Shown: piece after piece, positions 18,023 through 64,000 of the stretch
Layout of the letters: each line of letters opens with the position of its first letter
Numbering within the stretch: the stretch's first letter is position 1
NCBI GenBank assembly: GCA_964016885.1
Contig: OZ024742.1
Coordinates: 350,486,001-350,550,000 of the forward strand
Direction of reading: 5' to 3'
Source: Eledone cirrhosa
Taxonomy: Eukaryota
Length of the DNA: 64,000 bases
The notes under the pieces: model-generated
The model's input: only the letters and a program-made list of their open reading frames with translations
Databases searched by the model: none
Told to the model about the DNA's origin: nothing
Made by a program: the position numbers and the translations under genes

Positions 18023-19040
18023 TATTATAATCGATAACATTAAACATTGATTGTGCTCGTATTTAAAGAGAGCAAAGATGGGCTTCTGTATAAGATACTC
18101 TAAAATAAATGTTCGAATTTAAAGCTATCTACAGAGGTAGGTTCTATCGACCAAACCTCCCCTATAAACGGGTATCATTGTACTAATGTAAGATAACATC
18201 ATCATCACCAGCAGCAGCATCCCTATCATATTCATATTCCCCCATTTTTCCTTCATCTATATCACCCTAATAAAAAAAAAACATTCTATTACATTAGAGT
18301 TACTTTTGTTGATTTTCCTAACAGATTTTGTCATCTAACCCCAATTACTTTGTGTTAAAACGGAGACGTTAGAAGAATATAAAATCAAAACTATATGTAA
18401 ACAGTAATGAATAATGCGAGATAAATTAATATCGAGTTAGCTTTAACATTGTAATTATATGAGGATACAACGAGACTAGACTAAAATACTGAAGTCTTAG
18501 TTTTCAAGTAATGTTTCAAGGGAAACACATATACTCACATTGTTTTTGTGCTCACACAAATACTATAGACATCTTTTAAAATTCATAGTTAAATCTAGTG
18601 AAATAATTATCGTACATGCTGCAACTTCTTACCTTTAACAAGTTTTAGTATATCATAAAAATGTTCGATCTTGTCTAATCGATGTTGATTACTGAAGTGG
18701 TTATATTCTTTGGAACCTAAAACTTTATATCAAGATTTAACTTACGTACTAAAGAGTTCAAGTGAACACTCATCTCTTTAACTTACGTACTAAAGAGTTC
18801 AAGTGAACACTCATTTTCTTTTCAGAATTCGATGTCGGTTATATCCGGTGCATGTTTCCAGTCTGTTACAAGGAAGCAGTGACTATGTACCTTAGCTATG
18901 AACACATGTCAGTGCTTATATCACGCTTTTAACGTTCAGTAGGAATACCAGAAAACAACAACAGCAACACAGTACAAAATATAATGAGGATTAAAACATG
19001 AATGAAAACAGGATTATAACAAATCAAAATGTCTACTTAC

Positions 19041-19337
19041 TCTCCGAAGCGTTATGTACCATAACTTCAATAGCAATGGACGCCTTGTTGGGCGTTCGGC
19101 AGACGTACGTTCCTCCATCCTCTAACCGACTGTTTTCTATTCTTAACAAACTGACTGTAACTTTATCTGCCGATGTATATTTAGTTGTCAAAATACGACT
19201 GTCTCGGTTCGAATATATCTTAGTGCCTTCTTTATACCAGTTAATATCACGTGACCGACTGTCACCTCCTGAAGAGTTACACATCAAGGAGATTGCAGTG
19301 CCTCGTATGACATAACGGTTCCCCGATATCGTAAGAA
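19041..19337 (-). CDS. Internal exon encoding an immunoglobulin domain (Dpr/ZIG-8-like two-Ig cell-surface protein, second-Ig type)
   Basis: Acceptor GATTCTCTTCCAG and donor A|GTAAGT; 297 bp, phase 1-1. Translation LTISGNRYVIRGTAISLMCNSSG...INWYKEG...LRIENSRLEDGGTYVCRT carries the Ig Cys, Trp and DxGxYxC motifs. Family assignment is from remembered resemblance only. Confidence 0.88.
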
Positions 19338-20288
19338 CTGGAAGAGAATCACACAAAGGACAGTTAGATGATGTTAAATAATGTAAGGGTGATAATGATA
19401 ATGGTGTGGATGAATGATAGCGATAAAAATGAAGAATGATATTCATAAATTTATAGTCAAATTTACATATGAGCAATAATAAACATTGTTTAGTATATTA
19501 GCTGAGTGTGGCTTTGGTCATGTGTTCAGGGGTGTAGTCGTACGCACCATACTTAGGGATTCGTGGGTTGGTGAGGCTATTTAAACCATAGTTGGGGTGG
19601 ATGGCCATTAGTGCGGAAATGTTTATCTACCCTTTAATAGCTCTTGTTATTTTTATGCTGCTGGGGTTCTACCAGACCAGGAACTAGTAGGGGAGCCTGG
19701 GTAATTACCGACCACACGAACATGAAGTTGCTTGTAATGGGTTACACGGTACCGGTAGCAAACAGAAGGCTGACCTGTCCATAGTGGGCACCAGTGGAAA
19801 AGAACGAGAGGGCGGCCAAATCCAAGATGGTGCGTCGATATGGCCAGAGATAGGAACGCACATGGCCAGAGATAGGAAGCGATGGATGTCACCCAGGGAA
19901 GGGTTCATCCAACAGGAGTGTGAAGGATTTAGAATTGAAGGAAAATGTGTATGAACGGTAGAGTGGTGGTTGGAATGTGTTGTATGAAATTAATACATTT
20001 TTAATGTTCAAGTTAGCTTGAGTAACCGTCAATTATTACGAGTAATAATAAGGATTTATCTAAATTCTACCACAAGGGGAGCGACGTTGTTTCAAAGATT
20101 GGATGGCAATAAGGTACATATACACACTAACAGAAACTCCAAATAAGCATTGGATATACAGAATTATCTATGTATAAGTCTAGAGTCTTTCAGACGGCAT
20201 AAATGAATACCTTCCACACAAACACGAGGAGACACACACATACACAGACACAGGCACACACATACGCACTCACACGTACACACACACA

Positions 20289-26924: not shown

Positions 26925-29900
26925 ATGGCTAATATAAGGGTTGGATGTGTGAATGTACGCGGCCTGGGGTTGCCCTGGAAACAGGGCAAACTCTTAAAAG
27001 AATTCAGGTCACACAGTATGGATGTAGTAGCCATTTTCGAGTCCAGGATACACAGCGAGCGACAGCTGGCCCCCATCTTCGATAACTTTGAGATCTACGC
27101 ATCTCTCTGTCGGTCGGGGGGAGGGGGGGGGGGGGCGTTTTGCTGCGGAAACACCTGGGCCTCGTAACACTGACGGTACATCTGAACCCGAGGGTCGACT
27201 GGTGGTCCTAGACGTTGATGGTAGTGAAGGTGGAGCCTTCAGGCTGGTCGCCGCATATGCCCCATCCGGGACACCGCGGCCAGACTTCTTCAAACGTTTA
27301 GAGACTTTTCTGGGAACGTCCCGCTCCTTGCTTTTAGCGGGGGACTGGAATGGGATCCTAGATGCACGTTGGGAATATGTGGGAGCATGTCCCGATAAAG
27401 GGGGGTGTAACAGCCTCAAACAGTTAATCGGCCGATTTGATCTGGCCGATAGATAACCACTAGATTTTCTGACTGTGCCAATGTGGACGTGGACTAATCG
27501 TAGGGGAACATCTAGATCGTACCTAGATAGGGCTCTAGTTAGAAATTTAGCAGTATTGGTTATAGATGTTATCGCCACTTTAGCAGGGTGGTAGAATCAG
27601 TGGTCGTTAGTTGCCAGTGTGGTAAGTGATAGTATCCTCGTTGGATTATCTTGTTGACATAGACGTGAGGGAAGGTCCCTCGATCTATTTACCATCTATT
27701 CACAATATTCCTTTCGTCAGGTCGCCAATTCCAGCAGCATGGATTAAAGATGTTATTGAGACACGAGTAACATAATAACGACTTCAACCGCAGTAATTAG
27801 AGATGAAATGTTTGTTTATTTATATGGTTGAAGTTACAGATACAAAGAGGTTACAAAAATGGAATGTGCCATTGCGCCGTTAAGCCGGCGAGGCTAGTGG
27901 TGCAATATCTCACTGTTACATTATGCGTGTTGCTGGCTCGAAGTTTCTGGTACAAGCTAGAGATTCTTCAAATCTTCGCGGGGAATTTCTTCCTCAGGGC
28001 GCGTAGGGATACATCCTCTTCTACTGGCGCTGATTGGCTGAACTGAGCCAAATCACGCACAGAGAATGTATGTGAGCCCGCGGAATGTAGGTCACTACAG
28101 AAATAAGGATAGGGACATGTTAAGCTGTCTACAAATGTTCATGGTTGCATATTCAGATCACAAACTAGTGATCTGTATGGTCAACCTTGATATAACCCAT
28201 AGATAAGGACCCGGCTACTGGAAGCAGAACTTGTCGTTACCGACATGCAAAGCCTACAGTAGACGGATTAGCACTTTAGTTAAACAACACTTCACAGGGG
28301 CCATTGTCAACAACAGATGGTGGTACTCTCTCAAGAGAACAGTTAGATTAAACTCGTTAGTTTTTAGTAAAGAATTAGCGTTAGATAGAAATAGGACAGA
28401 GAAGGAACTGATAAATAAAGTAGAAGAGGCAATTAGAAGTGGCAACGTAGCCCGCGTGCTAGCAACGAGAACGGCCTTGGACCAGTTCTTCGACGCAAAG
28501 CACGAGGGCTGCGTTGTCAGAAGCAAAATACGTGCTCTGGGAAACGAGGAAGCCAAAGCTGTTAGCTGGGCCCGAGTGACGGAGGCAAAAAGTGTCAAGA
28601 AGTCCACGATTCGGTCTTTGAAAGACCAAGACGGACGCGTGATACGTGAGCCGAAACAGATGTGTACGGCCTTTCAGCGGCACTTTCCTCAATTGTGCGG
28701 GCAGGGCGGCGCGCCGGGAGGGGCTATGGATTTCGGTCCATACCTCGACGGCCTACCGCGACTCTCGGACAGCGAGGCGAAGTTTTGCAAAAAGCCGATT
28801 TCAGCCGCTGAGATAAGGGACGCGCTGAGCCAATGCGGCAAACGCAAAACTCCAGGTCTCGACGATCTACCCTACGAATTTTACGTAGCAATGCCGGACT
28901 TATTCTCCGGTCTCCTGGAAGCGGTCTACTGCAACTGGCAGCAGAACGGGAGAATTCACAGTTCTGTGACCGGAGGCGTAGTCACACTAATCATGAAGGA
29001 CGAGAATATAGGGGGATGACATAGGCAACTTTCGGCCCATAACTCTGCTAAACACAGAGTTACATATTTTTGACAAGGTGTTGGCAAAGAGGCTGGCGCT
29101 TGTCGTCGAGAACCTGGTGGGAGAAGCGCAGACATGCACAATTCCGACCAGGTCCATACATGACAACCTCCACCTCATGCGATACATCATAGAGAGGGTA
29201 GGGTGTAAACAGGGCTTCGGTGTGGCCCTGATCAACTTGGATCAGTCTAAGGCTTTTGAAGGGTTGACCATCGTTACCTGGAGGCGGTACTCGAGACGAC
29301 AGGCTTCGGATCTGTGTTCAGGGGCTGGATTGCTGCAATGCACAACAGCAACATCTGCTCAAGGGTCAAGGTGAACGGCTACCTCTCGGAGCCGTTCCAT
29401 ATCACGCGATCCATTCGACAGAGATTCCCTCTCTCATCCCTTCTGTACGTACTGACTCTCGAGCCACTACTGCGGAAGTTGGAGCTATTGCAGGGCATCT
29501 CTCTGGAACCGGGACTGTGGAAAGCGGCGTCGGCCTACGCCGACGACGTGACAGTAATGGTGTCGAGCACCTCGCAAATCGAAGAAGTCAGCACCTTTCT
29601 GAAGGAATACGAAAGGTTCACAGGAGCGAAGCTGAACCGGGACAAGTCCATCGGTTTGCAACTCCGATCGTGAAGAGGCAAACCGATGCCTTCCGATGGC
29701 GTTGTCGGACGCTGGACGGAAGGACTGGTAAAGCTGCTCGGGGTCTGGTTTGGTCCGGACTTCCAGGTGGAGAAGAACTGGAACGAGGTGACGGCCAAGG
29801 TGTTTGCACTCACCCAGAAGTGGGCCGAGTGCAAACTATCCTTGAAAGGTCGAGCCGAGGTGGCGAACAGTTTTATAGCGTCCGCTATCTACTACCGCTT

Positions 29901-30130
29901 GACTGCCGTGCCTTGTCCAGCCGAAACACTCGCCAAAATGGAGCGCGCGCTCTTCCAATTCCTTTGGAGGTGGCGGGCTCCTTTGGTGAGAAGATCCCTC
30001 TGCTGCTAACACCCTTCCAACGGAGGGCTGGGGATGCCGTGGCTGACGATGCGCAAACACGCGCTCATGCTGCGGCATCTCTACGTATTCCTCACCGGAC
30101 CGAGCTGCTGTCCTGGGTCAAGCAAAGACC
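26925..30130 (+). mobile_element. Decayed L1/Tx1-type non-LTR retrotransposon ORF2 (APE endonuclease + RT), frameshifted and 3'-truncated
   Basis: EN motifs NVRGL, YAP, GDWN, WTW, SYLDR, SDHK; RT motifs TPGLDDLPYEFY, NFRPITLLN, LDQSKAF, RQRFPLSSLLY, YADD, KLLGV; several frameshifts and stops. Confidence 0.93.
27547..28099 (-). mobile_element. Solo LTR nested in the L1 endonuclease domain
   Basis: GAAAT duplicated at 27542-27546 and 28100-28104; minus strand starts TGTAGTGAC; AATAAA near 27820; L1 frame (ALVRN|KDRD) resumes after removal; other terminus imperfect. Confidence 0.75.
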
Positions 30131-30798
30131 GAGGACAATGGAAAAAGAGGTTACGTTTCCATATTTTACTACGGGATGTATATTTCTGTCAAATATTTTA
30201 AATGGGTTTACATAGTTATATAACCCTATCATATATACATTCATAATAATGGCCATATATTTCAGAGGCGTTAGACAATTGTTACGTAAGAATATTATAA
30301 GTAGGACGGGATATCCTCAAATAGGACTTTTAAAGTCGGTAGTATGAATAAGCATAACAGACATAAGATGGTGATTGTTCGAAAACGAAGATATTTTGTA
30401 GTAGTACTTGTTCAGTAACATATTAATAGCCCAGAAGTGTTCACTTCCACGGGATCGATCACAACCCTGTCGAGGTGCGACTGATATTTGAAGAGTTTAC
30501 TCTCCTCGGCAGTAAAGCGTGGGTGCAGCAAAGCGTGGGCTAGTTGCAGACTGCACCTGGTTGCCGCTGGAGAATATATCGCTGCATATGGCATCCAGTT
30601 GAGGGGTTAACCACAGTGGACCCAGTAAGATTGCCACGTGTACTGACGTAACTCCTACTTTCCAGTACCTCCTCTTTTACTCTACCTACTGTTCTCAATA
30701 CAAGTTCCTTTCCTCTGCAAATAAACTGTTTTCTATATAATCCTAAGACATCAATAATTAATTACTGCCAAAAAAAATTAACTTCATTATTGTGAATA

Positions 30799-32189: not shown

Positions 32190-32551
32190 AGTTTCTATCA
32201 GTGAAGGGTTTAGGGTTAGTACATTGCCCGACCTACCGAAGAATGCATGGTTTCTATATTTCTTATACTGCGACCTGTGCTGTTCTGTATAATAACTCAG
32301 GGTACGTGTGTGTGACAGCCCACACCTATGCAGGTTCAGCTGGCCTCCACCAAGGTATATCTCATTGGGGTGTCTTGAGTTATTTAATGACAGGGACCTC
32401 AGTCCTATCATCTCATTTCTACAGCTGAGTAAACTGGAGCAACGTGAAATAAAGTGGCTTGCACAAGGAAACAACACATCACCCGGTCCAAGAATCGAAC
32501 TCACAACCTTTCGATTGCAAGCCCAATGCTCTAACCACTAAGCCATGCACC
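32190..32551 (-). mobile_element. tRNA-derived SINE, second family (CORE-like)
   Basis: Head GGTGCATGGCTTAGTGGTTAGAGC...GAGTTCGATTC then TTCCTTGTGCAAGCCACTTTATTTCACGTTGCTCCAG; 3' limit approximate. Confidence 0.8.
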
Positions 32552-33039
32552 TTCACTATAACTCATTCCATACTGAGAGGTATATAATATCATAACGCAG
32601 AAGAACTCCCATTTGTAATAGCATTGTATAAATGTGTTTGTTTATAGTGGTGTGTAAAAATATAACGTTTATTTTCGACAGTGGTGAACACTTAAGGTGA
32701 TCAAGGTGGGTCATTAGGAAACAATTGTTTCTACTAGGACCCCCTGCAAGGAGTGTCGGGGACGTCCTGCAACCAAGGCCATCACAAGAAGAAGAAGAAG
32801 AAGAAGAAGAAGAAGAAGAAGAAGAAGAAGAAGAAGGAAAGAAAGGAGGATAAGAAAGAGAAAGACCTGGTATTTTTACGTGTAGTGAATACGTTACATG
32901 GAGTTGGACGTCATGTGAAATATACATAAATTAATTAATTAACATTTGCTTTAGTAACTTTCTCCTCTCTTCATTATTTACATGAATAGGATTGATATGC
33001 ACACTCAGGAAGTAGTATCACGACTAACAGGGCTAAGAT

Positions 33040-35945: not shown

Positions 35946-36147
35946 CGAAGTAAGTGTGGTAAGGAACCAGGTGGACCATAACGCACCAGAGTACTCGATA
36001 CTTTGGGTAGTAGAGTGAGTAATAAGAAAAGAGTCAGAACCCCAACGGAAGAGCTCAAGCTGTTTCGACAGCTATTTCTGGATTCTATGTCCAGAAATAG
36101 CTGTCGAAACGGATTGAGCTCTGCCGTCGGGATTCTGACTCTTTTCC

Positions 36148-36150
<3 letters not shown>
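35941..36150 (-). mobile_element. (TA)n-inserted asymmetric hairpin element
   Basis: TATAACGAAG..TGTGGTAAGGAACC tail plus ~60-bp palindrome ending TTCCTATA. Confidence 0.85.
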
Positions 36151-36196
<46 letters not shown>

Positions 36197-36213
36197 GGAG
36201 AGAGGGGGGGTGA

Positions 36214-36285
<72 letters not shown>

Positions 36286-36393
36286 AGTGTATAGTCAGGA
36301 TTTTACACTTCTCTATACACACTCTCCATCTCCCCATGTATCGAGTACTGACATAATGAGTAGTTTCCTCGGTCTCAGCACCGCAGACTCTCC

Positions 36394-36537
<144 letters not shown>

Positions 36538-36838
36538 TATATACCAATTCAGGTGTGAAACATTTCATTCAATCAATATAGACACGACGCACACACGAAC
36601 ACAAACATAATCATATAGATACAAACGCCAATATAGACTACATACCCATACACTAATACAACAATACTCATATACATACATACGTTAAAATGTATATCTA
36701 CATATAATATAATCAACACGCACATTAATACAAGAATACTCATATACATACATACGCTAAAATGAATACCTACATAAAATGTATACATACAAATACATAC
36801 AACATTACAATAATACTCATATATGTATATATATATAT

Positions 36839-37037
36839 ATAGGAAAAAGTATGACCCCGACGGCAGAGCTCAAGCCGTTTCGACGGCTATTTCTAGACTC
36901 CAGAAATAGCCGTCGAAACGGCTTGAGCTCTGCCGTCGGGGTCATACTTATTCCTATTTCCCACTCTACTACCCTAAGTATTGAGTATTCTGGCGCGTTA
37001 TGGTCCATCTGGTTCCTTACCACAATTCCCTTGTTAT
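36839..37037 (+). mobile_element. (TA)n-inserted asymmetric hairpin element
   Basis: Same family, opposite orientation; palindrome centred near 36899. Confidence 0.85.
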
Positions 37038-47859: not shown

Positions 47860-47979
47860 ACTAGAAATTGATTGACATATATATATATATATTTATATAG
47901 GTATTCCGTCTGTTACAGAAACATATGTCAATACCTAATAAATTCCTTTTTAAAAAAAGCACTTTCATTTTATATTCAT

Positions 47980-48216
<237 letters not shown>

Positions 48217-48299
48217 AAGTAAGTCCTTCATCAGTGACCCTCCAACCGTCCAAGGCATTTCATATGCACCACCATTTGCAACGCGCAGCCATCATTATT

Positions 48300-48364
<65 letters not shown>

Positions 48365-48366
<2 letters not shown>

Positions 48367-51190
48367 GCGATTATTTAACAAATTTTGAATACAAAACCAG
48401 CAATCTTTACGGACTTCCGAAGATCCACAAATGTAAAATAATCAACGATGCCTGTAAACAATCCATCTCAGCCTGCGTGAACACACAATACCCCACAGAC
48501 CTTAAATTAAGACCAATTGTAGCGGGCCCACAATGTGAAACACACAGATTGAGCAACTTTATAGACATACTACTGAAACCAATACTGAAACACATACCAA
48601 GCCTTGTAAGAGACGATCTGGACCTCTTAAACCACCTCCCTAAACATGTCAACAACGACACTATTATTGTGTCTTTCGATGTAGTGAATCTCTACACAAC
48701 GATCCCACACCAATACGGACTAGAAGCAATAGGATTCTGGCTAGATTAAAATTCATCCTACAGAACAACTTTTTTGATTTCGATGGCAATACTTACAAGC
48801 AAATATCGGGGACTGCGATGGGCACAAAAGCCGCTCCAACTTATGCCAACTTAGTCATGGCATACTTAGAAGTCCAGATATATGAACAGTCCAAATCAAA
48901 ATACGGATTGAACTTCCACAAATATTTATCAGAGAATTGGAAACGCTACTTGGATGATTGCCTCATTCTTTGGTCCCACACACTCGACCAACTGAAGGAT
49001 TTCAAAAACTTAATAAACGGCATCAATAACCACATCCAATTCACAATGGAATACAGCCAAGATCAACTCCCATTTCTGGACATCTTAATCACAAAAAAGA
49101 CACAAATATCGAAACTGACATACACTACAAACCAACAGATTCCAAACAATATCTGCTATTCACCTCCAACCACCCAAAGCACACGAAGACGAACATTCCT
49201 TTTAACCTAGCAAGAAGAATTTGCACAATTGTCTCCAATTATGAAACGCGAAATAAAAGACTTCAAGAATTAAAGAAAATTCTACTTGAGAGAGAGTACC
49301 CACTATTACTAATAAATAATGGAATAGAAAGGGCTAAAGCAATAGGCATTGATGAATTACGGAAACAGAAACAAATTCAAGGTACGTCCAATATTCTATC
49401 ATATATCTCAACACACAACCCAAGAAATGCGGACGCTTACAACACTATTCACAATAACATCCCACTACTAAAACAAAACCCAAGAATGAAAAAAGCCCTT
49501 GAAACACACAAAATAATCAAAAGCAAAAGACAACCAAAATCACTGAAAACATTACTCACCAATGCCAAATTACCTACCACAAACCCACAACCAAGTATCA
49601 AAAAATGTGGTCGCTCTAATTGTGGAACCTGCACTCACCTCATTGAAGGCAACACGTATACATTTAAATCAGGACAAAATTTTACTGTAAAAAATCACTT
49701 CACTTGCTCATCAAAAAATCTAGTTTATGCCATTAAATGTAAAGGATGCAATGAAGATTATATAGGACAAACTAAACTCACACTCAGAAACAGAATGACA
49801 GTTCATCGCCAACAATTACGAGATCCAACCACGAGACAGATACCACTAAGTGCACATCTAGACATTTGCGCAAGTAATAAGACACCCAAATTCCAAGTCT
49901 TCCCATTTTACCTTTGCGCTAACAATACAACAGAACAAATGCGAATAAATAAGGAAAATATGTTTATTCAAAAATATAGACCAACATTAAATAAGGTTTA
50001 ATATACATTATGTCAACACCACAATATGACATACACACACACACATAACACCTTCTACTTTAGAAAATAAAAACCCGAACTAAATAAACCTTAACATACG
50101 CTTGCACTGGCAATACAACAGCAAACACGAAAAAGTAAGGAAAATATGTTCATTCAAAAATATTGCTACTAAAGGAATCACTTTCCTACACACACACATA
50201 CACACACACACAATATATATATATATTCTCTTCATCTTAACATGCTAACCATACTCCCACACACATAACACCCATACACACACATAACAACCCCCACACC
50301 TACAACTCCCTCCCCATTTCTACTAATAGAACCACTTTCCTACACACATATATATATACACACACACAAAATATATATTCTCTCCATCTTAACATACTCG
50401 CACACACACACATAACACCCATATACACACACACACAACTCCCTCCCCCATCTCTACTAATAGAATCATCTTCCAATACACACATACACACACACACACA
50501 CACACATACACACACACAAGCACACAAATAAACATACATATCTTCAGTCTCAATAGAAAATCTGAACTCTGGCGAGTTGGCCATATTCACTGAACCAGAA
50601 CATTTCTCCCAATCCCTTTTCTCTTGACCACTATCTCTCCATTGTCATAACATTCACTATAAAGACTACAGAATAGTTTTCCAAATAAGGGCGCAAAAAT
50701 GTTATAAAAACTTGTTCACGTGACAGCCAAATTTCATTTATAACCAACCAAAAAAAAGCCTTCGTGAGCCTCCTTTTTTCAAGTAAAAAGAAATTCAAAC
50801 ACTCATATATGAAAAAACAACCTGTGACAATCCCCCACCCCCTCTCTTATTTGAAGAACTATTGTAACGCAAACTGGCGCGAAATTTATTATAATTATTG
50901 ACAAACCAATCAAATTACTTCTCGAAAAACCTGGAATTTCGAGCCACTTTTTCCATATAAAACAAGTAACATTCAGAGACCAACCAGATGTGAGAAAAAC
51001 CACAGACCCTCCATCTCAACTCACCTTTTGAAAAGCAGAAGAACTGCGAAACCGGTAAAGGAACCAAATAAATATATATATATTTTAAAAAAAATAAGAC
51101 TTCAGTTGTATTTTCGATTTCATCTCTTTTTCTTTATACTTTCACTCGTGTAGGACACCTCGGTTATTTTTCATTTTGTAAAAAAAACCT
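48365..51190 (+). mobile_element. Penelope-like element (Neptune-type linker), 5'-truncated; RT + GIY-YIG, with 3' non-coding pLTR region
   Basis: [53 protein letters not shown]; CGRSNCGTC linker; LVYAIKCKGC..YIGQT..LRNRM..H. One internal deletion and frameshifts; coding ends at 50001; flanked by (TA)n. Confidence 0.93.
51024..51061 (+). ncRNA. Minimal hammerhead ribozyme in the PLE 3' region (U3-A8 core)
   Basis: CCTT TTGAAAA GCAG-AAGAA-CTGC GAAA CCGG TA AAGG; same strand as the PLE ORF. Confidence 0.85.
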
Positions 51191-61000: not shown

Positions 61001-61107
61001 CCATTGTACTATTCAGTCTTTGTTACTGGCAGTGTAGTAGTCTGTGTGGTCGCTTGTTGGTCGGTAGATGGTGGGGGCGCTATACACACAATAACACATA
61101 TATATAT

Positions 61108-61242
61108 ATATAACGAAGGAATTGTGGTAAGGAACCAAATGGACCATAACACACCCGATTACTCAGTACTTAGGGTAATAGAGTGGGAAATAGGAATAAT
61201 TATGACCCCGACGGCAGAGCTCAAGCCGTCGAAACGACTTTT

Positions 61243-61247
<5 letters not shown>
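61108..61247 (-). mobile_element. (TA)n-inserted hairpin element, hairpin collapsed by deletion
   Basis: TATAACGAAGGAATTGTGG...GAGCTCAAGCCGTCGAAACGACTTTTCCCTATA. Confidence 0.8.
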
Positions 61248-61312
<65 letters not shown>

Positions 61313-61322
<10 letters not shown>

Positions 61323-61825
61323 ATAAGAAACACAGTAAACCGTGTGTCTAAAACTACAAGGGTTGAAAAACCACATTTGTTTGAAATATTTAACCAAGAA
61401 GCAGACAGAATGATAAAATAAAAATATATTTTTATACAAACCGCCTCAATAACCAGTATATCTCTCGGACAGATTATCCCTAATCTGTTTCGCCCTGAGT
61501 GTGTTTCTAACAGATAATCCTGGGCTTCATCAGCGAGAGAATCTGATTAAATGCAACAAACACTATTTGCCAACGTTCACACAGAAAGATGAATTTGTCA
61601 CCTCGTGCTCCGCTAGCCAAACGTGGTAAGCGTGTATTGAACAGAAACAACAGTCCAACACACGCAACTTAATAAGCTCAACTTGTGAGGGAGCAGAAAT
61701 ATATATGAATATATTTTTATTTTATCATTCTGTCTGCTTCTTGATTAAATATTTCAAACAAATGTGGTTTTTCAACCCTTGTAATTTTAGACACACGGTT
61801 TACTGTTTTTCTTACTATATATTAT
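61313..61825. repeat. ~125-bp inverted repeats flanking a ~265-bp HHR-containing spacer
   Basis: 61313-61437 is complementary to 61702-61825. Confidence 0.9.
61461..61540 (-). ncRNA. Canonical type I hammerhead ribozyme with stable helix III
   Basis: Minus strand: TCTCTCG CTGATGA A GCCC...GGGC GAAA CAGATTA-GGGA-TAATCTG TC CGAGAGA; all core nucleotides intact, GUC site. Confidence 0.92.
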
Positions 61826-61959
61826 TAATCGGCTCAGTATTTTTATACTTGGAGCTTAATAGTTACAGGGTTCCAATTGAGTTTTAACTCTAATCTTCAT
61901 ATATATATATATATATATATATAGAAGGATTTAAATGGATACAGTTCAGTAAAAGGAAT

Positions 61960-63028: not shown

Positions 63029-64000
63029 TTATGTAATATTCAGCTTGTAGTGGGAAAAAAGGGTTTTAGTTCGGTGACGGCAGAATAATGTTCGTTCAAT
63101 TCTGTTATTAAGCAATTTCTTCTTGTGTGTGATTATGTAATAAATCTCAAGATTACATAATTTGCAGAAATTTTGGATCCTGGAAAAGCTTTGGGTTTTA
63201 GCTAATTTCTCCCATTTTAGGGTAAATTTTTGATCGCTATCCCTGAGCGTCCAAGCTTTTTCTGCTAAAGTTGTTACATTTCTTTGGCTCTCGTGTTTTA
63301 TTGAGTAAGAATGCCTATATAATCGAGATTTAAACGATGTTGCCGTTGATCCCACGTAATACCACTCGTTGCCTCCGGATTCAATGGTACACTTATAGAT
63401 GATATTTTTTTCCAGGCAGTTATTGCCGAGGGGGCAATTGTCAGGATAGGTGCAGTTACAGTTGTGTACGTTGGTTTTGTAGTTAGGTTCACTCTGGAGT
63501 AGTATTGCGGACGAACTTAGGTGTGGTTTATTTATGTTCTGTAGTGTATTGTCTACTGTTTTTTCTGTGCTCTTTGTACTTAAGTTTTTAGTGTTTTCGG
63601 TTAACCTTCTAGTATTAATCTTGTTTATGTGTTGTTCAAGGTTTAACGCTGTAGAGTATGACAGTCTTATAGTGGTAGGGTTTAGGATTTTGTGGTATTT
63701 GTGTGATGTAGGGAAATGTTTCATAATTATTTTAAAGAAGAGTACTGGTAAATTTGTACTAATGGAACTATTGTATTCAGGGTTATACCATAAGTACTCT
63801 TTGCATCGCTTTCTATTAGTTTTGTTTGTTGGTTAATTGGTGTGTACACTATGGTAGTAAGTGTGGTTTGGTGTTGTGTTATTATTTCTACCTATGTGGG
63901 ATTTATTTTGGGTGTTTTTATTGTTTTCATCTATATATTCTATTTTGTCGAGGTAGCCTGCTATACTAAGGGCGTTATCGTAGTACTCGGCGTGTTTCTT
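63029..64000 (-). mobile_element. Penelope-like element C-terminal region with GIY-YIG endonuclease (Naiad-like), continues past the window
   Basis: HKYHKILN...LSYS, CNC....CPLGNNC, IIYKC...YVGST..FKSRLYRH, CKLCNLE, LLN.R.E....CRH. Confidence 0.88.

Follow-up and report, generated by a model that had tools for sequence, protein, structure and literature searches.

In this work, we have analysed a hammerhead ribozyme in a 64,000-nt stretch of the Eledone cirrhosa genome, referred to here as the window. Our results show that the locus is one copy of a non-coding tandem repeat present in several hundred copies, that is, an animal non-LTR retrozyme. The explanation that we consider probable is that this single-hammerhead copy was reverse-transcribed into a (TA)n microsatellite, likely by a Penelope-like element (PLE) acting in trans, and that in most copies the ribozyme is predicted to be held off by a conserved leader lying upstream of it.

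The hammerhead and its repeat family

The minus strand of 61540-61461 carries a type I hammerhead in which the conserved core (C3-A9, G12-A14, A15.1-U16.1 and the NUH triplet) is entirely present. Helix I is open and pairs 61540-61534 with 61467-61461 (7 bp), and it is followed by CUGAUGA (61533-61527), an extra A (61526), a 4-bp helix II (61525-61522 with 61495-61492) closed by a 26-nt loop II (61521-61496), the GAAA motif (61491-61488), and helix III (61487-61470), which has 7 bp plus the A15.1-U16.1 pair (8 bp) and a GGGA loop. C17 lies at 61468, and the predicted cut falls between 61468 and 61467. The initial annotation had placed the ribozyme and its cut at these positions, which is borne out by the core, the helices and a minimum-energy three-way junction. 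In a 111-nt piece this junction has an energy of -29.4 kcal/mol (z -1.9; 10 of 200 shuffles were as stable), and ViennaRNA predicts it with a probability of 0.97 for the local hammerhead piece and of 0.88-0.97 over four contexts, in agreement with the monomer fold that had been proposed for this copy. The description of the motif as fully canonical stands for the core (CUGAUGA, GAAA and the cut-site triplet) and is slightly too strong in view of the extra nucleotide between A9 and G10.1, a known variant described as a hallmark of PLE hammerheads (PMC4209133). Four matches to a loose core pattern were found in the window against 0.52 expected, and a scan that checked helices returned five candidates at four places, only 61461-61540 having long helices I, II and III. 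Rfam matched no hammerhead when the entire window was searched at the gathering score, or when 2 kb were searched at E<=5. Restricting the search to 141 nt gave the type I model RF00163 a score of 22.9 bits (E 0.0011), which falls short of the cut-off of 34 bits; loops II and III contribute long inserts to this match. A core that looks intact does not by itself prove activity, since only one of nine predicted dimers cleaved in the work reported in 10.64898/2026.07.22.740005.

As the initial annotation had noted, the long helix III sets this ribozyme apart from the minimal, dimer-dependent PLE hammerheads. Both are type I and share the nucleotide lying after position 9 and before position 10.1 and the G10.1-C11.1 pair, but helix III has 0-2 bp and a palindromic loop in those described in PMC4209133 and 7-8 bp here, and in this respect our motif resembles the monomer-active hammerheads of fungal and protist PLEs in the same report. 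A monomer-active animal precedent is the coral hammerhead, with a rate of about 0.8 per min (PMC7229834). It had also been suggested that loop II contains a near copy of a helix III strand that might allow an inactive fold. The near copy is present (61520-61511), but the alternative folds are 3.9 and 6.4 kcal/mol worse, with a pair probability of at most 0.005, and we reject them on energy; the outer pairs are also broken in older subfamilies.

Searching the 3.0-Gb genome with the element gave 1,234 candidates, the best 40 of which were 96-100% identical. Pattern matches genome-wide numbered at least 565 (core plus helix III) and at least 531 (core plus helix II), both lower bounds on the number of hammerhead copies, with none in the reversed controls, while two exact 27-mers were found 357 and 600 times. 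The copy-number check thus gives several hundred copies, and the cassette is no isolated case. From tandem loci, the unit is 449-472 nt long (roughly 450-470), with a GC content of 36% and strong structure (z -5.3). Our main sample comprised 94 distinct sites (the top 30 matches, the sites on contig C1 found with two exact patterns, and eight on C2), of which 91 were analysed after removal of three segmental duplicates, and 40 further loci were chosen for divergence. A head-to-tail unit junction is present in 61 of the 91 sites, and 12 of the 91 have at least two complete hammerheads on the same strand. The oldest of the 40 diverged loci are about 70% identical and their layout is unchanged. 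Four insertions of identical layout within G000:C1:217.42-217.66 Mb are consistent with local segmental amplification. In literature on hammerheads or retrozymes together with Penelope, octopus and cephalopods, we found no description of this family among titles and the first parts of abstracts; the supplement of PMC7229834, which covers species and folds, may bear on its novelty.

The ribozyme is well kept across copies. In 29 representatives helices I, II and III are paired in 97.5, 99.1 and 99.0% of cells, respectively; changes are one-sided only, no two-sided change was seen in any helix pair, the leader included, and covariation did not exceed that of shuffles. Loop II has 26-30 nt and is nearly invariant, and it was not part of the pattern used for the search. 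Of 113 hammerhead copies, 73 have A as the extra nucleotide, 39 have U and one has G; in CChMVd, whose (+) strand shares the extra A10, an A at this position is reported to cost little and a U to speed cleavage (review PMC3705267). Two features that the initial annotation had singled out proved to be less general. The GNRA loop is not conserved, since the loop of helix III differs between copies (GGGA, UCCC or a longer sequence). The 7-bp extension of helix I is largely limited to young copies: at -3 kcal/mol it occurs in only three of the 20 leader-bearing rows of the diverged set, one of them this copy and another a deletion artefact, and its seventh pair is found in a single one of the 29 representatives, again this copy. 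The GGGA and UCCC loops are reverse complements of each other inside a perfect inverted repeat, which suggests a micro-inversion of the hairpin.

The unit was also present in four sequencing runs of one study, none of them on record as RNA. One of these runs (X4) is likely RNA, because it contains spliced joints at the GAPDH locus, which were not found in another run (X1). The dominant family contig in X4 is 287 nt long, belongs to an older subfamily and not to this copy, spans the cut site and has an intact core.

A conserved leader complementary to loop II

Close to helix I, on its upstream side, lies a 19-nt leader (61545-61563, minus strand) that is complementary to 61501-61519 in loop II, and that conservation and folding mark as a predicted lock or pseudoknot partner of the ribozyme. 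This segment was absent from the initial annotation, and it is kept in subfamilies about 70% identical. In 20 diverged loci, selected without the leader and loop II segments, the outer 8 nt of the leader are 97% identical and the corresponding parts of loop II 98% and 94%; by comparison, identity over the unit as a whole is 81%, and that of the sequence just upstream 61%. The leader duplex reaches -10 kcal/mol or below in 20 of the 20 leader-bearing rows (of 26), a count that is partly circular, as these rows were flagged by the leader sequence itself; of the other six rows, five appear to be 5΄-truncated or to lie at junctions, and in one the leader is mutated. With the leader, the predicted probability of the three-way junction is below 0.1 in 21 of the 29 representatives; without it, 12 of the 29 exceed 0.5 and 17 stay at or below that value. 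When five whole natural units were folded as circles, the junction probability was at most 0.04 in all of them, with the two folds only 2.6-7.4 kcal/mol apart. These figures come from ViennaRNA, which ignores pseudoknots, Mg2+ and tertiary contacts, and shuffled upstream sequence matched the leader duplex in 13 of 500 trials, so that the leader is only modestly better. We predict, on this modelling, that the leader blocks the active fold in most copies.

The copy studied here is predicted to behave differently, its modelled junction probability being about 0.96-0.97 with or without the leader. Its leader duplex is weaker (-11.8 vs. -15.4 kcal/mol), and two rare substitutions, both on the minus strand, touch the structure. 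At 61507 a C-to-G change in loop II breaks one leader pair; it is found in one of 113 hammerhead copies and produces a G-G there that no other of the 29 rows has, and a G at the equivalent position occurs also in one copy of an old subfamily (L198). At 61456 an A-to-C change, likewise present in one of 113 copies and one of 29 rows, supplies the helix I extension with a further pair, G-C. According to the folding model, these two substitutions would shift the predicted fold of this copy to the active one, and they probably arose by drift after insertion.

Could the leader act instead as an activator? Base pairs between its inner 5 nt and the start of loop II may form a pseudoknot of helices I and II by which the ribozyme is docked, and ordinary copies would then cut fast as monomers. 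This 5-bp pairing lies distally on both helix I and helix II, is 95% paired in the 29 rows, with no covariation, and is retained as G-U in old subfamilies; moreover, a pseudoknot of this kind was predicted in about 40% of hammerheads in PMC3088659, and it is beyond what the folding program can model. On the other hand, the outer 8-bp part of the pairing is equally conserved, the insertions have no excess of 5΄ ends at the cut site (see below), and the full 19-nt duplex would leave 5 nt of loop II to reach helix II, presumably too few to keep helix II closed. We consider an activating leader rather unlikely, with blocking by the leader the better account of most copies.

The lock and the activator can coexist as a switch. 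In such a two-state device, the leader would either zip 5 bp onto loop II, so that the ribozyme docks and fires, or pair along all 19 nt and silence it, and circles and multimers would stay intact for a Penelope reverse transcriptase starting at the two TA tracts described below. We put this forward tentatively, as a possibility that falls short of an even chance. If it is true, nature would have supplied an unlocked mutant in this copy, and with it a ready on/off pair for testing how the circles of animal retrozymes avoid self-cutting.

Insertion anatomy and mobilisation

The main arm of the element (61313-61709, minus strand) spans approximately unit positions 4-400 of a ~467-nt retrozyme repeat, ends at an internal TA tract (tract A), is 98-99% identical to the best genomic copies and maps to positions 1-400 of the natural tandem unit at another locus (L002). 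It is joined by an inverted, 5΄-truncated copy on the plus strand, of which 61708-61825 (unit ~283-400) is the part common to the main arm and the right arm of the inverted repeat, and 61826-61904 (unit 401-479) is the continuation, an optional tail of about 79 nt ending at a second internal TA tract (tract B). The tail segment matched family sequence at 97-100% in 40 of 40 scored genomic matches, and 61830-61905 is thus also family sequence, so that the right end of the element is at ~61904 and not at 61825. The (TA)n target microsatellite flanks the element on the left (61247-61312) and on the right (61905-61921). The 124-nt inverted repeat (61313-61436 with 61702-61825, 95% identity) is the overlap of the main arm with the inverted second copy and not a terminal repeat. 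The locus contains one hammerhead and is a monomer; two consecutive units with complete hammerheads, which define an 'active retrozyme' according to Li et al. 2026, are absent from it, and a 127-aa stop-free frame over the element had no Pfam match. Another repeat family associated with TA, which has strong internal palindromes, inverted arrangements and no hammerhead core, lies at 61098-61245 and 36100-36950 and beside several retrozyme loci, the retrozyme being in the adjoining TA run; we considered the 61098-61245 repeat as a hammerhead and rejected it, the core being missing from its other copies.

The same anatomy recurs across the 91 sites. The 3΄ end is at tract B in 53, at tract A in 35 and elsewhere in three, that is, 88 of the 91 end at one of two places, unit ~400 (A) or unit ~479 (B, 12 nt into the next unit), and TA-rich DNA follows directly in 84. 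An inverted 5΄ piece of variable length is found in 45 sites, and 39 of these 45 pieces end at A or B. By contrast, 5΄ ends are scattered, and only four of 136 fall in the cut region (unit 244-252), about what an even spread predicts. We therefore reject the idea that templates usually have their 5΄ end at the hammerhead cut, and the lack of an excess there is consistent with uncut or circular templates. The element spans the cut site in 82 of the 91 sites, a figure that is inflated because many sites came from hammerhead-containing queries. Twin priming on a single RNA fits this copy, whose main arm terminates within tract B, the priming site of the inverted arm. As a general rule it finds no support: of 39 anchored inverted copies, only eight stop near the same tract, as against four that stop near the other one (permutation p 0.24).

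Endonuclease-bearing (EN+) PLEs are described (PMC8557442, PMC3846280) as forming partial tandems and inverted 5΄ copies, as having a tail that is optional and as being biased towards microsatellites, and all of these traits are found here: the partial tandem, the inverted 5΄ copy, two 3΄ ends that define a tail, and the microsatellite target. One PLE has been reported to nick both strands at AT-rich DNA, to start reverse transcription at two internal sites defining the tail and to use uncut RNA, its hammerhead cutting only with the protein present (PMC11167929). The insertion anatomy is thus a signature of PLEs. Mobilisation in trans is read from this anatomy, since no partner element was found. 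The initial annotation had called for a search for an associated autonomous element, and none sharing sequence with the unit was detected among 30 loci of one young PLE family, that represented next to the element at 63029-63832, whose 3΄ end is unrelated. The element itself lacks an ORF with reverse transcriptase (RT) and GIY-YIG domains, and no such ORF is linked to it apart from the junction at locus L112 (G000:C1:384052500-384057500), where the 5΄ end of the copy joins directly into a fragment of a PLE endonuclease ORF. The 3΄ end of that copy is followed by TA repeats and not by the rest of the ORF, and L112 is a possible template-switch chimera.

PLEs and other mobile elements are also present in the window. 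At 63029-63832 (minus strand) lies the 3΄ portion of a PLE that is very young and has its endonuclease at the C-terminus; many of its genomic copies have 785-aa open frames at about 95% identity, and its 3΄ UTR contains a degenerate hammerhead-like core. Its Cys-rich linker, which had no Pfam match, suggests the Neptune clade. A frameshifted Penelope-type element with RT and GIY-YIG matches lies at 47901-50001 (plus strand), and several other families of minimal hammerheads with a palindromic helix III, typical of PLE pseudo-LTRs, occur in the flanks of many loci and at 62075-62032 (minus strand) in the window. There are also a degraded LINE with endonuclease- and RT-like frames within a GC-rich stretch (27031-30215, plus strand), and a tRNA-like match of 31.4 bits (32483-32552, minus strand), probably the head of a tRNA-derived SINE.

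The PLE-like anatomy would also be expected if the unit were the solo pseudo-LTR of an autonomous PLE, whose ORF-bearing copies would be rare, lost or unassembled, and if arrays came from partial-tandem insertion of the PLE, with no independent RNA circle. The extra nucleotide after A9, the relationship of Xenopus retrozymes to PLE pseudo-LTRs (10.64898/2026.07.22.740005) and the L112 junction point the same way. Against it stand the direct head-to-tail joins of units at most sites and the scarcity of PLE protein: in a sample that is part of the family, 16 of 94 sites have a match nearby, which the clustering of TA-targeting elements would lead one to expect, only at L112 does a match adjoin the element, and none abuts it in the 40 diverged loci, some of them about 70% identical. 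We judge this explanation improbable, and an ancient pseudo-LTR origin is in any case compatible with mobilisation of a retrozyme by a PLE in trans.

Even less probable is use by the host, as a cis-element cutting the transcript of a same-strand Ig-domain gene. An Ig-domain exon does lie 42 kb downstream in the sense of the hammerhead (~19036-19340, minus strand; Pfam Ig_3, E 4e-11), and this copy is the one predicted to fold actively; but the 86 ORFs of the window contain no further exon when compared with Pfam, so that an intronic position is a conjecture, the copy is young, being 98-99% identical to other copies, and one in 29 folding well is what drift would produce. Finally, a MITE-like or other DNA transposon with 125-bp terminal inverted repeats carrying the ribozyme, as the inverted-repeat cassette of the initial annotation might suggest, is refuted by the variable architecture and deserves almost no credence: the 124-nt repeat does flank this hammerhead and both ends lie in TA, but it is not a fixed unit, 46 of the 91 sites lack the inverted piece, the others start it anywhere from unit 7 to 448, and the right arm runs 79 nt beyond the repeat.

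We propose the following cycle for the retrozyme. Tandem loci would be transcribed into multimers, and some hammerheads would cut to give unit-length RNAs that would then be circularised, while pairing of the leader with loop II would keep much of the RNA uncut. The PLE endonuclease would nick both strands of a (TA)n tract, and its RT would start at tract A or B and read through the intact cleavage site. The inverted piece would be written by a second priming event from the other strand, and in this copy one arm may have been primed at A and the other at B.

Relation to known retrozymes

Tandem units with a type I hammerhead, 449-472 nt in length, with a GC content under 45%, no protein coding and no LTR structure, place the family among the non-LTR retrozymes. 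Those of coral, mussel and axolotl (PMC7229834) and of Xenopus and other animals (10.64898/2026.07.22.740005) are alike in being short, low-GC tandem repeats with one type I hammerhead per unit and no ORF, and in occurring as dispersed monomers and oligomers in PLE-rich genomes. The unit is longer here than the 170-400 nt of Cervera and lies within the 51-972 nt of Li. The long helix III and the 26-30-nt loop II are unlike those of metazoan non-LTR retrozymes. Self-blocking by a leader is predicted here, whereas PMC7229834 describes the ribozyme as free in most metazoan circles, with exceptions among those of mussel; the main text of that paper never uses the word 'inverted'. The EN+ PLEs (Penelope/Poseidon, Neptune) and their pseudo-LTRs resemble our family in partial tandems, 5΄ truncation, the inverted 5΄ copy, the optional tail set by two RT start sites, the (TA)n bias and the extra nucleotide after A9, but our family has no RT or GIY-YIG ORF, its tail is about 79 nt as opposed to 30-40, and its hammerhead is not minimal. 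Plant LTR retrozymes and hammerhead viroids are similar in that a segment complementary to the ribozyme is predicted to block it in the unit-length RNA. The hammerheads of plant retrozymes, however, are of type III and are located in LTRs, and these elements rely on Gypsy machinery; in our family the putative blocking segment is found just upstream and has loop II as its target.

What mobilises animal retrozymes, and what stops their circles from cutting themselves, are presented as open points in PMC7229834 and 10.64898/2026.07.22.740005. The hammerhead and the type of repeat that we describe are well precedented, and the parts worth a bench test are the leader and the two-site insertion signature. 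The family offers insertion-level evidence for mobilisation by PLEs, together with a conserved candidate for self-blocking and a natural variant that is predicted to be on.
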